Both the position numbers and the translations under genes were made by a program. Below the pieces are notes generated by a model that was given only the letters and a program-made list of their open reading frames with translations, did no database searches and was not told the DNA's origin. From the sequence record PQ511146.1: a stretch of 64,000 bases of DNA; one strand, written 5' to 3'. Origin of the DNA: Escherichia phage NHEP1. The number at the start of each line of letters is the position of its first letter. The first letter of the stretch is position 1. Of this stretch, positions 681 to 8,112 are shown piece after piece.

Positions 681-875
681 CTAGACGAACTCTGCAAGGG
701 TTGTGTTGTTCACTGCACCGCAGTAGATGGAGTATCCCAACCCGTTAGGGTGTAGAAACCACGGCACACCTTGATCATCCTTCACGTATACATCTCCATT
801 TTCCGTAAAGGGCCAATACTCTTCTCCAAGGGTAAAATACCTACTCATACCTTCAGCCAGATACTTTACTTTCAT
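681..875 (-). CDS. small hypothetical protein, member 1 of a tandem paralog triplet
   Basis: 64 aa; shares motif DDxGxxWF/L...G...G...A.F with the next two ORFs. Confidence 0.5.
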   Translation of the reverse strand: MKVKYLAEGMSRYFTLGEEYWPFTENGDVYVKDDQGVPWFLHPNGLGYSIYCGAVNNTTLAEFV

Positions 876-1099
876 AGATCCTCTTCAACAGCTACAAACT
901 TGGCAAGTAGGGTGGTTCCATAGATATGATACTCACCGTTTGCCAGATGGGAGATAAACCAGGCAACACCGTCCTCGTCTTCGATCATATTGTTTCTGCG
1001 ATCCTCGTCGTAATAAACCTTGTAGACCTTACCTTCTTCAAAGAATGATAGGTCTGTCATCTTCTCTTCTACAAATGTCGCTTTAACCAAAGTTGTCAT
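872..1099 (-). CDS. small hypothetical protein, member 2 of tandem paralog triplet
   Basis: 75 aa; EDEDGVAWFISHLANGEYHIYGTTLLAKF matches paralog motif; overlapping stop/start with neighbours. Confidence 0.5.
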   Translation of the reverse strand: MTTLVKATFVEEKMTDLSFFEEGKVYKVYYDEDRRNNMIEDEDGVAWFISHLANGEYHIYGTTLLAKFVAVEEDL

Positions 1100-1380
1100 T
1101 GATCTGCCTCCTTCTTGTTGAGCCGGAACACTGCAATAATAGCATTTCCAAGATGCAGTGTCAAATCATTTCCCAGATACCATAACATTCCACGGTCATC
1201 TTTAATGAAAGGGTAACAATCCGGTGCCTTCCAGACATTATACACTTTGCCGACCTGAAAGAAATCAGGCCCTGTTGGAATTTTAGTACCGGGCCATACT
1301 TGGGACACCTGAACGCATTCTACCTGCATAATGACAGGGATAGTCATGGAGGTAAATGTTTTTGTTGGTTCTACTACCAT
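1096..1380 (-). CDS. small hypothetical protein, member 3 of tandem paralog triplet
   Basis: Track ORF 1096..1470 overlaps polymerase 3' end; ATG at 1380 preceded by GAGAGGAGA SD; KDDRGMLWYLGNDLTLHLGNAIIAVF matches paralog motif. Confidence 0.5.
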   Translation of the reverse strand: MVVEPTKTFTSMTIPVIMQVECVQVSQVWPGTKIPTGPDFFQVGKVYNVWKAPDCYPFIKDDRGMLWYLGNDLTLHLGNAIIAVFRLNKKEADQ

Positions 1381-1429
1381 AAAAGTCTCCTCTCTGTCTA
1401 ACAACACTTCCGTGTGTTGATAGTTTACA

Positions 1430-4400
1430 TTAGTGACAATCACCCCAGTTACGACCGCACAAGTATTCACCTGTGATCTGGAACGGAACGCCCATCATTT
1501 TAGAAGCCTGCCAGAAGCAATGCACCACCATTTCGCCCACAGGGCTCCAGATAAGCTCAAGCTTTCCGTCATCATTCAAGATAGGATCGTATACCGTATT
1601 TCCATCCTTGTCAACCACTTCGTTTCCGTCCTCATCTTTGCGTGCCTTTTTGTACTTATGACCGTCGAACACATGAAGTTTAGCCTCTTGTTGGGCTTTA
1701 AATGTTTCCAGCTCTTCAATTGTGTCGAAGGTGTATACGGTTTTATACTTAGGTGTGTCAGGCACTTGAAGCTGATATTCGTCATGGTAATAGATAATAC
1801 GACGAACACCCTCATCATACCATCCACGCTTCACCATCTGGTGGTGCATGAGGATTCCGACCAAGTCGCACAACGATGCACCGCCATTTTGCTGATATGC
1901 ATTAAGCAAAGAGTGTTTAGAGCGGGTCCAAATGGCATGCCCGTCAAAAGAGTAGATAAATTTCTTACCTGTTGCTTCCCAGAATTTCTCCAGATCCTCT
2001 TTACGCCCCTTAAGGCCCGGGTTGGCATCCCAGAGAGCATCAATTACTCTCTGTCCAAGTTCTGGAGAGATATCTAGCATATCTGCAACTTTATCTTTTT
2101 GTGCCCCGTACATAACCCCATATGTGACAGGCTTACCATCGTTACGGGAAATCTCCTTGCCTGCTACAGAAGAGTAAGCTTTGGCGTTATTACAGTTACC
2201 GCACACTGCCACTTTACCATTCCTTCTCACAATGATTGCTCCAGAAGGGACGGTAACGCAATAAACCAAAGAACCGCTCACCTCGACAGACTCTTTAGAT
2301 AGTGTCAGCAACCCTGCTCTCTGTTTGCTACCAATCGTGATTCTGTGCTGTACGGAACGACCTTTTTTGTGAATCGCCACCGTATTATTCCGTAAACCAC
2401 ACTGAGTAGCCAGCGCAGACACAACCTCTACAGATTTCTTCCTGCACCCGGCCTGAGAGTAGTAGGCAACTTTTCCACCTTCGGAAGATACCCACCCGTC
2501 CCAGTTAGATAAAGAAGCTATAAACAGGTTTTTAGATTCTTTATCAAGGTCCATCAGGTTGTAGGTGAAATCCTTATTGCTGTCCAAAAACTCAAATACC
2601 CAGGACGGAACGTGGAATTGGAACCTTCTCGCCAGTAAGCCCCCTTTTGTGGTTTTCCCGCTCTGCTCTACATAACTAAGGCTTAGAGCAGAAAAAGTAT
2701 CTAAAAGCGTTGCAACTTTTCTGCCCTTCCCGACCTGAATCCTGCACACGATGCTGCCGTCCTTATTTGTATGCAAGTGCCCATCATCGTGAATAGCAAT
2801 AAGCAAATTAACCTGGGCAGGAGATAAGGTTGTATTCCCATAAAACTCTGCCGCATGGATAAACCTTCTTCCTGAATTAGACCCTTTACCTGCTTTCAGG
2901 TCTTTTGCCAAATCTTCAAACAATTTATTGCTTCTGTGATCCACGGTCAGCATCCTGTGTTGATCTGTAACCATAAAATCCACACTGCTGTTGTGGAAAT
3001 GATACATATCCCCACAATAACTACGCTTAACGTAATTTAATGGAGTAACAAGGTTCATCGACGAGGTGTTGTGATCGTACTGGAACACCTGTGTTCCCGG
3101 ATCAAGATCTTCAAACCTCACCCACCCTTTCTCCGTGAGAATTTGTGTATCTCCTGAATAACAGTGTGCATCGCCGTTACTTACAACATCATAATACAGA
3201 CCGTTGTCAAACTCAAAGGCACCCCAGGCCCCGATGAGCTGCTCTAAGTTGGACCCGTCAATACCGATCTCAAAGTATCCTGGAGGAACACCCCACAGAC
3301 TACGCATCTCTTTACCCATAACCACTTTAGGAGATGGTTTAGGCATGTTTGCACAAATACTATGTTTCTGTCTGGAAGTGTTTGTTAATCCAGAACTTTT
3401 AGCAGGAAGCTTGTGGTCAATCTTCAAACGTGGATGATTAAGAAGACCAGTATCAACCTTATCTTCCTTGATTGGATCAAGGACCGATCTGCGGTTTCGC
3501 AATGATAACCACAAAACGATATCTTTAGCCATCTCTCCGTTCAATTTTTCAAGATTCGGGCACAGGTGTCCAAACGTATCTTTCAGTTGCGGAGAAGTAA
3601 TAAGCGCTCTGGCTTTTCTACGTATCTTCCCAAACACTTCCTTTTTAATCCTTTCTGAGTTAGGGAAGCTTCGGAACTTATGCACAGTTGTCTGGAACTT
3701 GGCATCAGTTTTGTTCCAGAAGTTGATAATTAGATCACAATACTCTGACTCCAAAAGCTCGTCCATATATGCATATACTCGTGCATCAACATCTGCATCA
3801 GGTAAAGCTTTCTTCTTGCTGTCTTTAGTTACATCTTTAGTTCTCCACATTGTTGGGAGCCAACCAGCACTGATCAGGTATCGCTTGATGTCGTCCTGAT
3901 TGCTGATTTTCATAGGTATCTTGCAGTCAGGCATTCGCTTCTGCTGTAGGTCACTTATCGCCTGATCCATCAGCTCTTTAGGTAAAGGGTGTGGTGTAGA
4001 AGTTCCTTTGATATACCCCCTCAAGAAATCAGCCATCTTATCGGGGTCTTTACAGCCCATCTCTTCACACCATTTTATCCCCATCTTACTTACATCCCCT
4101 GTGGAGGTAAATGCTCGCTTAGGAGGAGCTTTGAACTCTAAAGCACTCATGTCCACAGGGTAGCCAAGCTTGTCTTTTAACCATTTCCAACCATTATTGG
4201 AGATTGTCCCATCTTGGTTAAACGGCTTTTCAGGGAACTTAGGCCGCTGAGACATTGATAACTCTTTTAAAGGAAGTTGTGGTTCAACACGATCAGCGAT
4301 CTCTTTCATCCACGCATCGCAACGGTCACGTAAAGCAATAGCCCCATCTATGTCGAAATACACCCCCTGTCGAGCCTGCAGCTCCATCAGGAAGTGCTGT

Positions 4401-5176
4401 AACATGCCTCGGCGTAATGCGTTCTTCCAGGTGATCTTCTTGAAGCCTTTCGGCTTCTCTTTGGCAGGATCGTACATAAAGTTCTGCATGTCAGATTTGC
4501 CGTAGAATACACCTTTTGATTCCGCTACCAACTCCTTCCAGAGCAACTCCTGGATGATAACGTCCTCGAACACACGATCCACATACTTCCACAGTGGAAG
4601 CTCACGCCAGTCATCGATTTGAACTTTCTGGTTACCAAGGGCATAGCCCCATGCCATAAGGCCATGAGGCCCAACAGGCTGCATTTTCTTGGTAACTGGA
4701 TTGAATACTGCGTCCGGACAACCTTTTGGCAAAGGGCGGTCAGGCCACAAGATTCGGCTCATCGCTAACGTATCAAACAGATTAACCGGGTGGTCGTTGA
4801 TAGTCCCCATGCATTTAGGATCACGGAACATATCAAAATGAATACCGGATAATCTTTCCATCAGCATAAAGTCGTAACTGTAGCAGTTATGACAGTTCAA
4901 AGCCGTAGGTGACCAGTCTGAATTGCCTGTAAGCCAACCTTCCAACTCTGAAAAATCTGCTATGCGAGCCTCAAAATCTGTATAAAGGGTCTTCTTTGCC
5001 AGAATGAAGTTCTTAGCTTTCTCCACATCCTCTTCAGAGTAGTGTGTGCGGTCATTTAGAGGAAGGAACAGCATAAAACGGTTCTTATTCAGCTCTTTAA
5101 ACAAACCGCAGTGATAATAAAGATCTGGGTCTTCCAGCAGGCCAGAGGCCTCAAAATCGAACGACCACATGCTCAT
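1430..5176 (-). CDS. DNA polymerase, family A, with N-terminal 3'-5' exonuclease domain; intein-containing precursor
   Basis: 1248 aa; Exo I motif FDFEASGL; Pol A motif A-like IDGSNLEQL, motif B KxxxYGxMYG, motif C YYHDE; AAGGAG SD before ATG at 5176. Confidence 0.9.
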   Translation of the reverse strand: MSMWSFDFEASGLLEDPDLYYHCGLFKELNKNRFMLFLPLNDRTHYSEEDVEKAKNFILAKKTLYTDFEARIADFSELEGWLTGNSDWSPTALNCHNCYSYDFMLMERLSGIHFDMFRDPKCMGTINDHPVNLFDTLAMSRILWPDRPLPKGCPDAVFNPVTKKMQPVGPHGLMAWGYALGNQKVQIDDWRELPLWKYVDRVFEDVIIQELLWKELVAESKGVFYGKSDMQNFMYDPAKEKPKGFKKITWKNALRRGMLQHFLMELQARQGVYFDIDGAIALRDRCDAWMKEIADRVEPQLPLKELSMSQRPKFPEKPFNQDGTISNNGWKWLKDKLGYPVDMSALEFKAPPKRAFTSTGDVSKMGIKWCEEMGCKDPDKMADFLRGYIKGTSTPHPLPKELMDQAISDLQQKRMPDCKIPMKISNQDDIKRYLISAGWLPTMWRTKDVTKDSKKKALPDADVDARVYAYMDELLESEYCDLIINFWNKTDAKFQTTVHKFRSFPNSERIKKEVFGKIRRKARALITSPQLKDTFGHLCPNLEKLNGEMAKDIVLWLSLRNRRSVLDPIKEDKVDTGLLNHPRLKIDHKLPAKSSGLTNTSRQKHSICANMPKPSPKVVMGKEMRSLWGVPPGYFEIGIDGSNLEQLIGAWGAFEFDNGLYYDVVSNGDAHCYSGDTQILTEKGWVRFEDLDPGTQVFQYDHNTSSMNLVTPLNYVKRSYCGDMYHFHNSSVDFMVTDQHRMLTVDHRSNKLFEDLAKDLKAGKGSNSGRRFIHAAEFYGNTTLSPAQVNLLIAIHDDGHLHTNKDGSIVCRIQVGKGRKVATLLDTFSALSLSYVEQSGKTTKGGLLARRFQFHVPSWVFEFLDSNKDFTYNLMDLDKESKNLFIASLSNWDGWVSSEGGKVAYYSQAGCRKKSVEVVSALATQCGLRNNTVAIHKKGRSVQHRITIGSKQRAGLLTLSKESVEVSGSLVYCVTVPSGAIIVRRNGKVAVCGNCNNAKAYSSVAGKEISRNDGKPVTYGVMYGAQKDKVADMLDISPELGQRVIDALWDANPGLKGRKEDLEKFWEATGKKFIYSFDGHAIWTRSKHSLLNAYQQNGGASLCDLVGILMHHQMVKRGWYDEGVRRIIYYHDEYQLQVPDTPKYKTVYTFDTIEELETFKAQQEAKLHVFDGHKYKKARKDEDGNEVVDKDGNTVYDPILNDDGKLELIWSPVGEMVVHCFWQASKMMGVPFQITGEYLCGRNWGDCH
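2195..3163 (-). mobile_element. intein (about 323 aa) in DNA polymerase between motifs A and B, with putative LAGLIDADG-type homing endonuclease
   Basis: Begins CYSGDTQIL (block A, Cys1 codon at 3163-3161); TxxH block B (VTDQH); LLIAIHDDG and IASLSNWDG resemble LAGLIDADG; ends ...VAVCGN with +1 Cys; motif B resumes right after. Confidence 0.7.
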
Positions 5177-5234
5177 ATACAGTTCTCCTTAAAGGGGAGG
5201 CGGTTGTACTACCCCTCCCACTCTTGGTTAAACA

Positions 5235-7313
5235 TTAAAAAGGTGTTTCGTCGTCTTCAAAACCAGGAACGTGGTTAGAGGACGGATCATCATACTGAAG
5301 GTCTTCCTGTGTGTCAACAGGGTTAACAGCAGGGGTTATAACCTTATCAGCCACAACCTTGCCCACAGGTGTTTCTACAACTGCATGCTCCTGATCCTCA
5401 AACATAGCCTGAGGTCTCCAAACAACCTCCCCACCTTCCCCGTCTGTAAACATCTGCATTTCTTTGTCCCAGTACCAGTTGCTGGCATCATAGAACTTGC
5501 CTGTGTGGGGATCCATAACTAGAGTGTCCGCAATACCTAAGGTTTTTGCTGGGCGGTTTTTAAGACCTACCAGTCGGACACGTCCACGGGAACGATCCAC
5601 CATCTCCTCTGCCTCTACCCCGACAACCACCCAGCTAAGTTGCTCCAATCCGGCACTACCGCGAAGGTTCTCTTTTCGTACAGGGTACCAGAAAGGTAAC
5701 GGATTTCCATCCTTATCCTTCGGAGGTACAATCTCTGTGCGCTTCAGGTGAGCAATCACCAAGATAAACACATTAAACTGCTTACAGAACGCGGCTAGTT
5801 GAGTCATAGCCATGTCAAGCTCTTTACGCTCATCCTTAACATTAAGCCCTGAAATCACCATAGACAGGTGATCCAGCACAATGTAACGGCAGTGATACAG
5901 GCACACCATTTGTTTAAGCTTAGTGATCAGCTCATCTACAGGGATGGAGCCGAAATGCTTGAACACTTTGATTTTTCCGGCCTTGGCCCAAGATTGATGA
6001 ATCTCAGCGTGCTCCTGATCGGTCAGGAACTGACTGGGGTCTTCAACAAACTCTTTAACATCAAACCCCAGCTGGTTAGCGTACAGAGAGTTGATTGCTT
6101 CCTCAGGATCCTCTTCAAGGTGAATCAGGCACAGGCGATCATCCTCTTCATAATCATCAGCTTTAGGGCATGTTGGATCCATCAAGTATCTTGCAATGCA
6201 ATGTTCCAGCTTCTTGGCTACAGTTGTTTTACCACCGCCAGACGGGCCTGTCAGCATCATCAAGGTGCCTTTGTGGAGTCCTTTCAGCATCTTCTGCAGT
6301 TTAGGGAACTCTGCACTGATATCTACGCCATTGGAAGTCTTCTTACGAAGAGATTCAATGGAGAAGTCTTCTAAATCAGATACAGCATCAGGCACATATT
6401 TGACTGGGTGACGGAACATGTTGACAATATCTTCCAGCTTTTTAGCCTTCAGCATGTCACGAATATCTTTTACACCATCAGGGTCGTTTACCTCACCCGG
6501 GTATTCCACGTGGTAAACGTTATCAGCCATCAAAAATGCTGCGATATTATGTGTGGCTTCAACACCTTTAATAACGTGTTTTTGCTTCTCTACCTCGTTA
6601 GCTGCATCGTTGTCCATTGCAAGGACCACTGTTCCGTAGCTACGGATAAATTTCTCATTGTTCGCAAAAGTGTCTACGGCGTTTGCACACCCACAGTTAA
6701 TTCCAACAAAAGGCAGGCATGGTTTTCCTGCCAGATCCCCGCCGTTGATAACTGCATCAATCCCATCCTGGACTTCTTTAGCCCACTGCTTCACCTTCGC
6801 TGGGGCTTTAGCATTGGTGAGAATTCCTTTTACTTGTATCTGATATGCAGCCTGCCACGCTGCAATAACATCTCCTTCTCCCTCACAAACGTTAATCTGC
6901 TTACGGTTGTTGGAGGATGCACACAGCTTTTGACCAAACATCTGGGAGTTGGCCTTTACTATGCCAACAACCGAGAAATGGCCCCTTTGCTCTTTAGGGA
7001 TTGTCCAGTCACGCTTTTTAAAGCCAGATAGATTACCGTAGCGGTCATAATACGGAAAGTAGGTGGCAGTAACAGTTACACCATCCTCTTGGGATAGCGA
7101 TGATCGTACACCAAAATATTGTGCAGCCATCAGTCCAATATTTTGTTGTGGAACAGGGACAATTTTAGTGTTTTCTAAAACAGTCTCCACAGTTTCAACT
7201 TCTTTTTCATCACGATAGTCTCGTTTCACACTCCCCCCACTTTTATACTTAGTTGCTTTCGGGTTTGGCTCACCGAAACGGTTGTATGCAGATGCCATGA
7301 ATTTACTGCCCAT
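5235..7313 (-). CDS. DNA primase/helicase (TOPRIM-like N-terminal region plus DnaB-like ATPase)
   Basis: 692 aa; Walker A LTGPSGGGKTT, Walker B-like YIVLDHLS; acidic VLAMDNDAANE region N-terminal of the ATPase; AAGGAG SD. Confidence 0.7.
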   Translation of the reverse strand: MGSKFMASAYNRFGEPNPKATKYKSGGSVKRDYRDEKEVETVETVLENTKIVPVPQQNIGLMAAQYFGVRSSLSQEDGVTVTATYFPYYDRYGNLSGFKKRDWTIPKEQRGHFSVVGIVKANSQMFGQKLCASSNNRKQINVCEGEGDVIAAWQAAYQIQVKGILTNAKAPAKVKQWAKEVQDGIDAVINGGDLAGKPCLPFVGINCGCANAVDTFANNEKFIRSYGTVVLAMDNDAANEVEKQKHVIKGVEATHNIAAFLMADNVYHVEYPGEVNDPDGVKDIRDMLKAKKLEDIVNMFRHPVKYVPDAVSDLEDFSIESLRKKTSNGVDISAEFPKLQKMLKGLHKGTLMMLTGPSGGGKTTVAKKLEHCIARYLMDPTCPKADDYEEDDRLCLIHLEEDPEEAINSLYANQLGFDVKEFVEDPSQFLTDQEHAEIHQSWAKAGKIKVFKHFGSIPVDELITKLKQMVCLYHCRYIVLDHLSMVISGLNVKDERKELDMAMTQLAAFCKQFNVFILVIAHLKRTEIVPPKDKDGNPLPFWYPVRKENLRGSAGLEQLSWVVVGVEAEEMVDRSRGRVRLVGLKNRPAKTLGIADTLVMDPHTGKFYDASNWYWDKEMQMFTDGEGGEVVWRPQAMFEDQEHAVVETPVGKVVADKVITPAVNPVDTQEDLQYDDPSSNHVPGFEDDETPF

Positions 7314-8067
7314 TAATTCTTCTCCTTACTGCAGGCTCGTTTGCTAAGAATACAGCTCTTGCCCAGCCACGTGGTGTAAGGCTTCGAATCATCTTCGTCC
7401 TTGCACTCTTTCCACCTAGCTTAGCGTGTTGCATGGAATAACCACTAACCGCATCAACTATTTGCGGGACAGGTTTTGTGGCGGGGATTATAAATCCATT
7501 GCCTATCCAACCGCAAGTTATTTTTGGGTAGGCATCACGTGGAGCTATAAATTCAGGAAACCATGGGTTTACATCATCCTCTGGTAAATACCCACCATAA
7601 TCCGAAGGATGAAAACGGTAATCAGGTTTTCGCCACAGTGTTGACATAACTCCTACAGGGTTCTCTACATGCCACGGGCAATCGTAAATCTCTCCCAACT
7701 CTTCTGCAACCCGAGCATCTTTCACAGCATTAATTTGGATCAGAGGATCCTTAGCCAGCTTTTTCTTAAAGTGTGCAGCTCCGGATACTGCTAAATGCGT
7801 GCACGGAGGAAATGCAAGAATAAAGTCTGGAGCCGGATACATGCAAAAAGTTTCTTGAGGGAACCATGGATCAATCCAATAATCCACATAGTGAATGTTA
7901 GGATGATCGGTTATCACCTCTACATAACTACCGTGGTCAGCACCTTCTGCATTAAAGCACAGGCACAGGTACCCAGCTTTTGCCCAGTCAATAACTGCAC
8001 CACCGGACCCGTCAAATAGACTCCACACGACACCTTTGTGGTAGTGTTCTTTGTAGATAAATTTCAA
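7303..8067 (-). CDS. DNA (cytosine-5)-methyltransferase-like protein
   Basis: Motif I SLFDGSGG (FxGxGG), motif IV-like FPPCTHLAVSG (PPC), motif VI HVENPVG (ENV) in canonical order; track start GTG at 8097 lies in a terminator hairpin, TTG at 8067 follows AGGAGA SD (start uncertain). Confidence 0.5.
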   Translation of the reverse strand: MKFIYKEHYHKGVVWSLFDGSGGAVIDWAKAGYLCLCFNAEGADHGSYVEVITDHPNIHYVDYWIDPWFPQETFCMYPAPDFILAFPPCTHLAVSGAAHFKKKLAKDPLIQINAVKDARVAEELGEIYDCPWHVENPVGVMSTLWRKPDYRFHPSDYGGYLPEDDVNPWFPEFIAPRDAYPKITCGWIGNGFIIPATKPVPQIVDAVSGYSMQHAKLGGKSARTKMIRSLTPRGWARAVFLANEPAVRRRINGQ

Positions 8068-8083
8068 TTTGCTGTCTCCTAAT

Positions 8084-8112
8084 GCAAAAAGCCCCACCCT
8101 TTCGGGCAGGGC
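8084..8112 (-). terminator. rho-independent terminator after the 8119..8601 gene
   Basis: Minus-strand transcript GCCCUGCCC-GAAA-GGGUGGGGC followed by UUUUU. Confidence 0.55.

Follow-up and report, generated by a model that had tools for sequence, protein, structure and literature searches.

A LAGLIDADG endonuclease-bearing intein in the family A DNA polymerase of Escherichia phage NHEP1 and its relation to a phage intein family with Gly-Asn ends

Here we describe an intein that interrupts the family A DNA polymerase (Pol A) in a stretch of 64,000 nucleotides (nt) from Escherichia phage NHEP1 (PQ511146.1), which in the following will simply be called the window. The polymerase is encoded on the minus strand by an uninterrupted open reading frame (ORF) of 1248 amino acids (aa) plus stop, i.e. 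a precursor consisting of N-extein, intein and C-extein. An earlier note, made from the sequence alone, had proposed that this ORF contains an insert of about 323 aa starting with CYSGDTQIL, and had read it as an intein with a putative LAGLIDADG endonuclease in the polymerase core. This reading is confirmed, as presence and absence among orthologs, the predicted fold and homology to an intein family all agree. That the insert is in addition a functional and mobile intein is highly probable. Overall, the intein is real but fairly ordinary: its odd C-terminal end is normal for a large known family of phage inteins.

The precursor matched two DNA polymerase PHROGs, phrog_8888 (E value 2.6e-134) and phrog_17 (E 3e-92). 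The spliced extein could be aligned to T7 DNA polymerase (E 2.6e-13), with motifs A (DxSxxE), B (RxxxKxxxYGxxYG) and C (HDE) in order. GIDGSNLEQ aligned to T7 motif A around D475, NGDAH/C (the slash marking the insertion point) to T7 N502-H506/T507, RNDGKPVTYGVMYG to T7 motif B (R518, K522, Y526) and YYHDE to motif C. This alignment bears out the proposed location of the insert between motifs A and B; more precisely, it lies in the fingers subdomain, directly after the equivalent of T7 His506. In the T7 ternary complex of Doublié and colleagues from 1998, this histidine reportedly contacts the phosphates of the incoming deoxynucleoside triphosphate (dNTP). The insert comprises 323 aa or 969 nt, from CYSGDTQIL at aa 672 (3161..3163) to VAVCGN at aa 994 (2195..2197), followed by Cys995, and the boundaries given in the earlier note, 2195..3163, were exact. 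After splicing, the mature polymerase would have 925 aa.

Regarding the distribution of the insert, 118 records matched by megablast place the window with the rV5-like coliphages (Vequintavirus). Six of these span the whole gene, namely Mangalyan, JEP1, 241Ecol014PP, YP-6, EPFV3-03/2025 and VB-EcoM-WM. About 110 related phages, covering 73% of the query, lack exactly these 969 nt, and in the simplest cases their gene measures exactly 2778 nt (3747 - 969). Thus, the comparison with intein-free homologs that had been recommended as a check shows that the segment is not a shared, normal polymerase subdomain. None of the six intein-plus genomes in GenBank (OR449013, MT740314, OR062943, OQ376695, PV435126 and PQ014731) annotates an intein. 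In these records, a coding sequence of 1132 aa is labelled DNA polymerase, DNA/RNA polymerase or hypothetical protein, and the 3' exon beyond a group I intron (see below) is labelled as a separate hypothetical protein. As this intein in the essential replicative polymerase goes unannotated, both the length and the domain make-up recorded for the protein mislead. A copy with 76% identity and the same junctions was found in the Pol A of a divergent uncultivated viral genome of 139 kb. No reservoir of the intein was found in 5,426 complete E. coli genomes, the exact precursor was absent from a collection of 15 billion proteins, and literature searches found no published description of a polymerase intein in rV5-like or Vequintavirus phages.

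The AlphaFold2 model of the insert, obtained with an alignment of 19 sequences, was confident (pLDDT 91.9, pTM 0.90; residue numbers in the model equal the intein number +3). It contains a HINT fold and likewise, in one chain, the duplicated alpha-beta-beta-alpha-beta-beta-alpha nuclease fold. The best Foldseek matches in the PDB were TliVMA (E 2e-14), PI-SceI (9e-14) and PI-PfuI (TM 0.70), the best HINT-only match was the AceL NrdHF intein (TM 0.84), and the central domain matched I-DmoI, I-SceI and I-Tsp061I (E about 1e-5, TMt 0.5-0.58). At the residue level, the TxxH block that had been claimed is present as T66-D-Q-H69, and the two LAGLIDADG-like motifs were found as LLIAIHDDG (D127) and LFIASLSNWDG (D222). 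Both of their helices (intein 115-127 and 208-221) terminate at Asp-Gly in the predicted structure, and D127, K149, W221 and D222 are invariant in the 19-sequence alignment.

The third line of evidence is the family to which the insert belongs. A word-indexed protein search with the insert alone gave no match. When 1.84 billion representatives were searched exhaustively with HMMER, 7650 matched, 2116 of them at E<1e-10, and a hidden Markov model (HMM) of the intein family scored the insert at 346 bits (E 5e-105), far beyond chance; with the same HMM, no second family copy was found in the window. With tblastn, 419 phage records were matched by the insert over its full length at 26-31% identity, and these matches sit inside genes for ribonucleotide reductase (RNR) alpha and beta, NAMPT, PhoH and ThyX in unrelated phages. 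The insert alone also matched PHROGs of unrelated proteins that evidently contain inteins, i.e. PhoH (1e-18), RNR and ThyX.

To describe the family signature, residues were tallied in 135 full-length relatives (cluster representatives at 50% identity) plus the window, 136 sequences to which all of the following counts refer. Blocks are numbered as in Kelley 2016 and Hoffmann 2020, where G:6 is the penultimate residue and G:7 the Asn. His B:10 and Cys F:4 were found in 136/136 and Cys1 in 133/136. Position B:7 is Thr in 126 and Ser in 10 members, B:11 is Arg in 83, and B:12 is Met in 42, Cys in 31 and otherwise Val, Leu or Ile, with Trp in none (0/136). A Pro stands four residues past F:4 in 118; the residues of the subsequent R-R-N are present in 117, 103 and 98 members, respectively, with R or K at the R313 position in 134. 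Towards the end, G:5 is Thr (59), Ser (41) or Cys (23), G:6 is Gly in 123 and His in only 3, G:7 is Asn in 119 and Gln in 16, and the +1 residue is Cys (88), Ser (40) or Thr (8). The signature can thus be written as C1, T-x-x-H-(R)-(M/C/V/L), Cys F:4 followed by a V-P kink, R-R-N and a (T/S/C)-Gly-Asn end. With R70, M71, C302, P306, R313, R314, C321, G322, N323 and C+1, the window intein is a typical family member.

Members of the family occupy the same Pol A site in divergent polymerases (P0007, P0009, P0014, P0020, P0058, P0123 and P0141), and further insertion sites include the TGRLSS..PN/QNIP motif, helicase DE/xH motifs, P-loops and TOPRIM motifs. In the divergent metagenomic Pol A sequences P0011, P0012 and P0040, two family inteins directly follow each other at the same D-x-H site. 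The first inteins of these tandems start with Lys, Ser or Ala, their +1 residue is Cys1 of the second intein, and they are mutually 39-46% identical; all retain His B:10, Cys F:4 and Gly-Asn. The second tandem inteins are minis or have a reduced middle domain (139-246 aa), and in P0107 two inteins are separated only by 'CH'.

We then turn to the mobility of the element. Among the 12 alleles compared, the intein of the window is 99.1-99.8% identical to those of five phages, while the N-exteins are 93.5-96.6% and the C-exteins 89-90% identical. In both extein trees, intein-plus and intein-minus alleles are intermingled, and the exteins of the window are nearest to those of the intein-less phage ECP2303 (98.8% and 98.0%), which therefore served as the closest intein-less allele for the junction comparison. 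ECP2303 reads NGDAH/QNNAEAYTKVAGREV and the window NGDAH/(intein)/CNNAKAYSSVAGKEI; the insertion site of the intein-less allele reads GTAAGTAACGGGGACGCGCAC/CAAAACAATGCTGAGGCATAT, and the empty allele around it (ECP2303 or rV5) is GACGCGCAC/CAAAACAATGC. Of 62 extein mismatches to ECP2303, 24 fall at -10 to +47 of the junction. This defines a co-conversion tract of about 58 nt, with outer bounds of <=118 nt upstream and <=176 nt downstream, that changes the +1 residue from Gln to Cys. Because the empty allele has Gln at +1, the Cys needed for splicing was imported together with the intein. Over the 60 nt past the junction, intein-plus alleles are 98-100% identical to each other and only 63-67% identical to intein-minus alleles. 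In comparison with the WM allele (88% nt identity), the ratio of non-synonymous to synonymous substitution rates (dN/dS) was 0.083 overall, 0.082 in the HINT part and 0.084 in the nuclease part. Altogether, the mosaicism, the short co-conversion tracts, the scattered distribution and the selection are the signature expected of recent homing driven by an endonuclease, whose cleavage would be the initiating event.

Taken together, the anatomy of the insert, its fold, its family membership, its polymorphism among relatives, the mosaic flanks and the purifying selection are observed, and the following sequence of events can be proposed. Translation would yield the 1248-aa precursor, in which the fingers are interrupted after the dNTP-contacting His. 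The HINT domain (intein 1-105 and 286-323) would then excise 323 residues and ligate His671 to Cys995, giving the active 925-aa polymerase and the free intein. We infer excision and ligation because six isolates are viable although the insertion parts motifs A and B at the dNTP-binding site, and because dN/dS is 0.08. Because of its 98% conservation, Cys1 would most likely start splicing in the class 1 order, and Cys302 would serve as an essential helper. Asn cyclisation must have other helpers, since family members generally have Gly where the penultimate His would stand; it could be assisted by Arg70 (B:11), as by its homolog in AceL NrdHF, and/or by the conserved R313/R314. Finally, the LAGLIDADG domain of the free intein (D127, D222) would cut intein-less polymerase alleles of co-infecting phages, and repair would transfer the intein along with flanks of about 10 nt upstream and at least 48 nt downstream, so that the Gln at +1 is exchanged for the obligatory Cys.

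The C-terminal end deserves closer attention, because the missing penultimate His had been taken in the earlier note as a reason to suspect a variant splicing mechanism. The junction VCGN/C itself was described correctly: the intein ends in G322-N323/C+1, and the penultimate His, which is common but not obligatory in inteins, is absent. The conclusion drawn from it is not supported as argued. Gly is the family norm, class 1 inteins of mycobacteriophages often have Gly, Lys or Ser in place of this His (Kelley et al. 2016, PMC5050341), and members with Gly do splice, while restoring the His is harmful. In particular, the Bethlehem gp51 intein (penultimate G316) splices completely and has a toxic nuclease, and its G316H mutant is slower (PMC5050341); as this intein aligns end to end with that of the window, an experimentally spliced member of the family exists. 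In the case of AceL NrdHF, G145H abolishes activity (Hoffmann et al. 2020, PMC7891396). The missing His alone is therefore no evidence of a different mechanism. A variant mechanism is possible on other grounds, which the earlier note did not mention: the block F Cys is invariant, and the family is akin to a proven class 3 intein.

Regarding these grounds, the usual class 1 helpers Asp F:4, His F:13 and His G:6 are replaced in the window by Cys302, Ile311 and Gly322. Of the class 3 WCT signature, Cys F:4 (C302) is present, Trp B:12 is Met71 and Thr G:5 is Cys321; Cys1 is present as well. F:4 is the branch-point nucleophile in class 3 inteins (PMC2807308, PMC4031507). When only the HINT part of the family was used as a profile, AceL NrdHF scored E 1.1e-12, the class 2 intein Mja KlbA 3.5e-4 and the class 1 inteins Spl DnaX and Mtu RecA 4.7e-3 and >0.05, with no canonical WCT class 3 intein at E<1. 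AceL NrdHF is a proven class 3 intein with Ala1 and the branch point Cys124 (Hoffmann et al. 2020, PMC7891396); its B:12 residue is Met in place of Trp, His is lacking at both F:13 and G:6, the block F Cys is followed by a Pro-Gly kink, and the end is T-G-N. Its Arg B:11 hydrogen-bonds the carbonyl of the C-scissile bond, and R69A slows splicing (PMC7891396). Judged from these residues, the family seems to straddle the border between class 1 and class 3, because Cys1 and T-x-x-H favour class 1 and the invariant Cys F:4, the class 3 relative and members without Cys1 suggest a nucleophile at F:4. Some inteins with an N-terminal nucleophile are said, by Tori and Perler in 2011, to follow the class 3 route all the same.

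An alternative to the class 1 order is thus a class 3-like or relay reaction, in which Cys302 would take over the N-extein as a thioester branch and pass it on to Cys+1, with Cys1 either dispensable or an upstream relay station, and the family a natural bridge between the two classes. Several observations argue in this direction: Cys F:4 is even more conserved than Cys1; AceL NrdHF is nearest by HINT-only profile, far above any class 1 intein, and also the best HINT fold match; the window shares with it H-R-M, the C-x-x-V-P kink, the lack of a His at F:13 and the Gly-Asn end (PMC7891396); and at the same Pol A site, three clusters whose first residue is Lys, Ser or Ala still have His B:10, Cys F:4 and Gly-Asn. 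However, Cys1 is nearly always retained in the family, whereas position 1 drifts in canonical class 3 inteins. T-x-x-H (Thr B:7, His B:10) is typical of class 1, while Trp B:12 and, here, Thr G:5 are absent. Moreover, Cys is the second most common F:4 residue among inteins overall (PMC4031507), and Kelley et al. placed phage inteins of the GN type in class 1 (PMC5050341). On balance, the class 1 order is the more likely of the two, and the class 3-like or relay order is rather unlikely, though credible. A related and doubtful proposal is that the family uses two thiols, either as facultative class 1/class 3 inteins or in an obligatory relay Cys1 -> Cys F:4 -> Cys+1. If true, AceL NrdHF and the Pol A inteins with Ala1 or Lys1 would be offshoots of this family and not part of a monophyletic WCT clade, and class 3 chemistry would have arisen more than once, passing through an intermediate that was viable. 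Such an origin would run against the published argument that a stepwise evolution of class 3 from class 1 is impossible (PMC7664689).

Several points weigh against the picture of a functional, mobile class 1 intein. For this copy, splicing, DNA cleavage and the sequence of the chemical steps are inferred, and the class 1 order in particular has against it the greater conservation of Cys F:4, the class 3 nature of the nearest solved relative and the existence of members without Cys1. There was no covariation between Arg B:11 and Gly G:6, as Arg is found in 61% of Gly and in 62% of non-Gly members; for this reason, the role of R70 and R313/R314 in Asn cyclisation is only suggested here. Curated HMMs stayed below threshold, with 23.6 bits for Pfam Hint_2 (cut-off 28.4) and E 0.058 for TIGR01445, and no Pfam LAGLIDADG model matched the insert. 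Given the strength of the fold and family evidence, such low scores do not speak against an intein. The lack of a LAGLIDADG match could fit an intein that splices with a dead endonuclease, persisting by vertical descent and ordinary recombination, as could its presence in just 6 of about 118 database relatives, far from fixation; general recombination during co-infection could indeed spread an intein with no active nuclease. Nevertheless, the two catalytic Asp residues are intact, as is the block D Lys, and all three are invariant in the family; the nuclease domain shows the same dN/dS as the splicing domain, and a nearly identical intein stands in backgrounds differing by 4-10%, flanked by a short conversion tract, which makes a dead nuclease improbable. 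Lastly, the segment could be thought of as an ordinary, lineage-specific polymerase subdomain or as an insertion removed from the RNA, as the reading frame is continuous and GenBank calls the homologs just DNA polymerase or hypothetical protein. This is effectively refuted by the orthologs that precisely lack the segment, by full-length homology to inserts in unrelated proteins and by the combination of HINT and LAGLIDADG folds. In addition, an Rfam scan of 1300..5300 gave no family, intron or other, even at E<=1, so removal must occur at the protein level.

In comparison with known systems, the intein in Bethlehem gp51 (RDF / metallophosphoesterase; aa 95-411) is similar from end to end (E 2e-11). 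Both carry a LAGLIDADG nuclease, are of similar size (317 versus 323 aa) and share C1, T-A-N-H-R-V, V-W-C-L-R-V-P and T-G-N/S elements. They differ in having only about 20% identity, in host protein and host phylum, and in that Bethlehem gp51 has Ser at +1 and Thr at G:5, where the window has Cys at both. The closest solved relative by sequence is the AceL NrdHF split intein (PDB 6ZGQ; E 1.8e-4 with a single sequence), with H-R-M in block B, Cys F:4, the V-P-G kink, no F:13 or G:6 His and a Gly-Asn end. Unlike the window intein, it is an obligate class 3 intein with Ala1 and Thr G:5, sits in the RNR beta subunit, and is naturally split around a free-standing GIY-YIG gene, with no LAGLIDADG domain. 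Canonical class 3 inteins (MP-Be DnaB, Msm/Mch DnaB-1) resemble the window intein in Cys F:4, phage association and insertion into a replication protein, but have no nucleophile at position 1, carry Trp B:12 and Thr G:5 and end mostly in His-Asn. In the case of PI-SceI (Sce VMA), TliVMA and PI-PfuI, the likeness is structural, a HINT domain with a nested LAGLIDADG nuclease (Foldseek E 1e-14 to 1e-11, TM 0.6-0.7); they are 10-14% identical, have Asp F:4 and a penultimate His, come from archaeal or eukaryotic hosts and are larger, with extra DNA-recognition regions.

Inteins in replication proteins, bacterial DNA polymerase I included, are well documented (PMC4760082), and related Vequintavirinae are rich in inteins and in polymerase introns bearing HNH genes (PMC7344957). 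Pectobacterium phage CB7, for instance, has LAGLIDADG inteins in its helicase and NrdA and HNH group I introns in its DNA polymerase; for that polymerase introns are reported and no intein, and a Pol A intein of the present type is unmentioned there (PMC7344957). A specialist would accordingly be surprised neither by the intein nor by its Gly-Asn end, and asking to which catalytic class so abundant a family belongs is worthwhile, though incremental. Among coliphages of the therapeutic type, the locus offers a clean natural case of what is probably ongoing intein homing, and an easily grown E. coli phage makes this very abundant family of phage inteins conveniently accessible. The question of Cys1 versus the block F Cys bears on the evolution of class 3 splicing. 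Gly-Asn inteins are attractive for protein engineering as well, given the fast and clean splicing of the AceL relative.

The features of the polymerase gene are collected in Table 1. Beside them, four Cys residues lie near the splicing centre, C1, C302 (F:4), C321 (G:5) and C+1 (cluster at 2192..2260, minus strand), among which a redox-sensitive disulfide trap is conceivable.

Table 1. Coordinates of the polymerase gene, its intein and related features in the window
Feature	Position	Strand	Basis
Pol A precursor ORF	1430..5176	-	ORF list; PHROG matches; T7 alignment
N-extein, aa 1-671; ends NGDAH (3164..3178)	3164..5176	-	T7 alignment
Exonuclease DxE motif in N-extein	aa 6-12	-	
Polymerase motif A, IGIDGSNLEQ, in N-extein	aa 637-646, 3239..3268	-	
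Upstream co-conversion tract, -10..-1 of N-extein; three synonymous differences from empty allele	3164..3173	-	ECP2303 comparison
Intein, 323 aa, precursor aa 672-994	2195..3163	-	absent from ~110 orthologs; model; fold matches
HINT domain, N-terminal half, intein 1-105	2849..3163	-	family alignment
Block A, C1-YSGDTQILTEKGW	3122..3163	-	
Block B, VTDQHRML; T66 (B:7), H69 (B:10), R70 (B:11), M71 (B:12)	2948..2971	-	
LAGLIDADG homing endonuclease domain, intein ~106-285	2309..2848	-	invariant residues; model helices; fold matches; dN/dS
LAGLIDADG motif 1 helix, SPAQVNLLIAIHD-D127-G	2780..2824	-	
Block D, VGKGRKV with K149	2714..2734	-	
LAGLIDADG motif 2 helix, KESKNLFIASLSNW-D222-G	2495..2542	-	
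HINT domain, C-terminal part, intein 286-323	2195..2308	-	family tallies
Block F, LVY-C302-VTV-P306-SGAIIV-R313-R314-NG	2216..2269	-	
Block G, VAV-C321-G322-N323	C-terminal end of intein	-	
+1 nucleophile Cys995 (TGT), first C-extein residue; Gln (CAA) in intein-less alleles	2192..2194	-	
Downstream co-conversion tract, +1..+48 of C-extein; 21/62 extein mismatches	2147..2194	-	ECP2303 comparison
C-extein, aa 995-1248	1433..2194	-	T7 alignment
Polymerase motif B, RNDGKPVTYGVMYG, in C-extein	aa 1011-1024, 2105..2146	-	
Polymerase motif C, YYHDEYQ, in C-extein	1772..1792	-	
Empty group I intron site in motif C, between His1131 and Asp1132 (YYH/DE)	1783..1784	-	comparison with relatives

The same gene harbours a second insertion site, in motif C, which is empty in the window and filled in every other intein-plus relative and also in some intein-minus ones. 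The insertions, after nt 3393 of the polymerase gene, measure 276, 328 or about 842 nt, the longest form carrying an HNH homing endonuclease gene. The interruption is a group I intron, as RF00028 scored 64.7 and 73.7 bits (L007 505-740 and L009 505-792, two of the six intein-plus GenBank records). The window is thus intein-plus and intron-minus, a combination not seen in any database phage, and since it combines the intein with an empty intron site, intein and intron assort independently. Intein and group I intron each hit a catalytic motif of the same gene.

Some minor observations concern related records and neighbouring genes. Sixteen unannotated 'Campylobacter phage' records of 135-143 kb (host C. 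jejuni), among them MG065635, MG065654, MG065674, MG065690 and MG065682, contain a polymerase about 94% identical to that of rV5-like coliphages (78% in one case), and their attribution to a Campylobacter host looks doubtful. Downstream of the polymerase gene lie three small overlapping ORFs of 64, 75 and 124 aa (681..875, 872..1099 and 1096..1470, all on the minus strand), annotated as hypothetical proteins in relatives. They look like tandem paralogs, sharing by eye G(K/E)xY...(D/E)DxGxxW(F/Y)(L/I)...G...(I/L)(Y/H). Upstream of the primase-helicase gene, an ORF of 264 aa (7303..8097, minus strand) contains LFDGSGG and FPPCTHLAVSG, which by eye resemble motifs I and IV of a C5-cytosine DNA methyltransferase.

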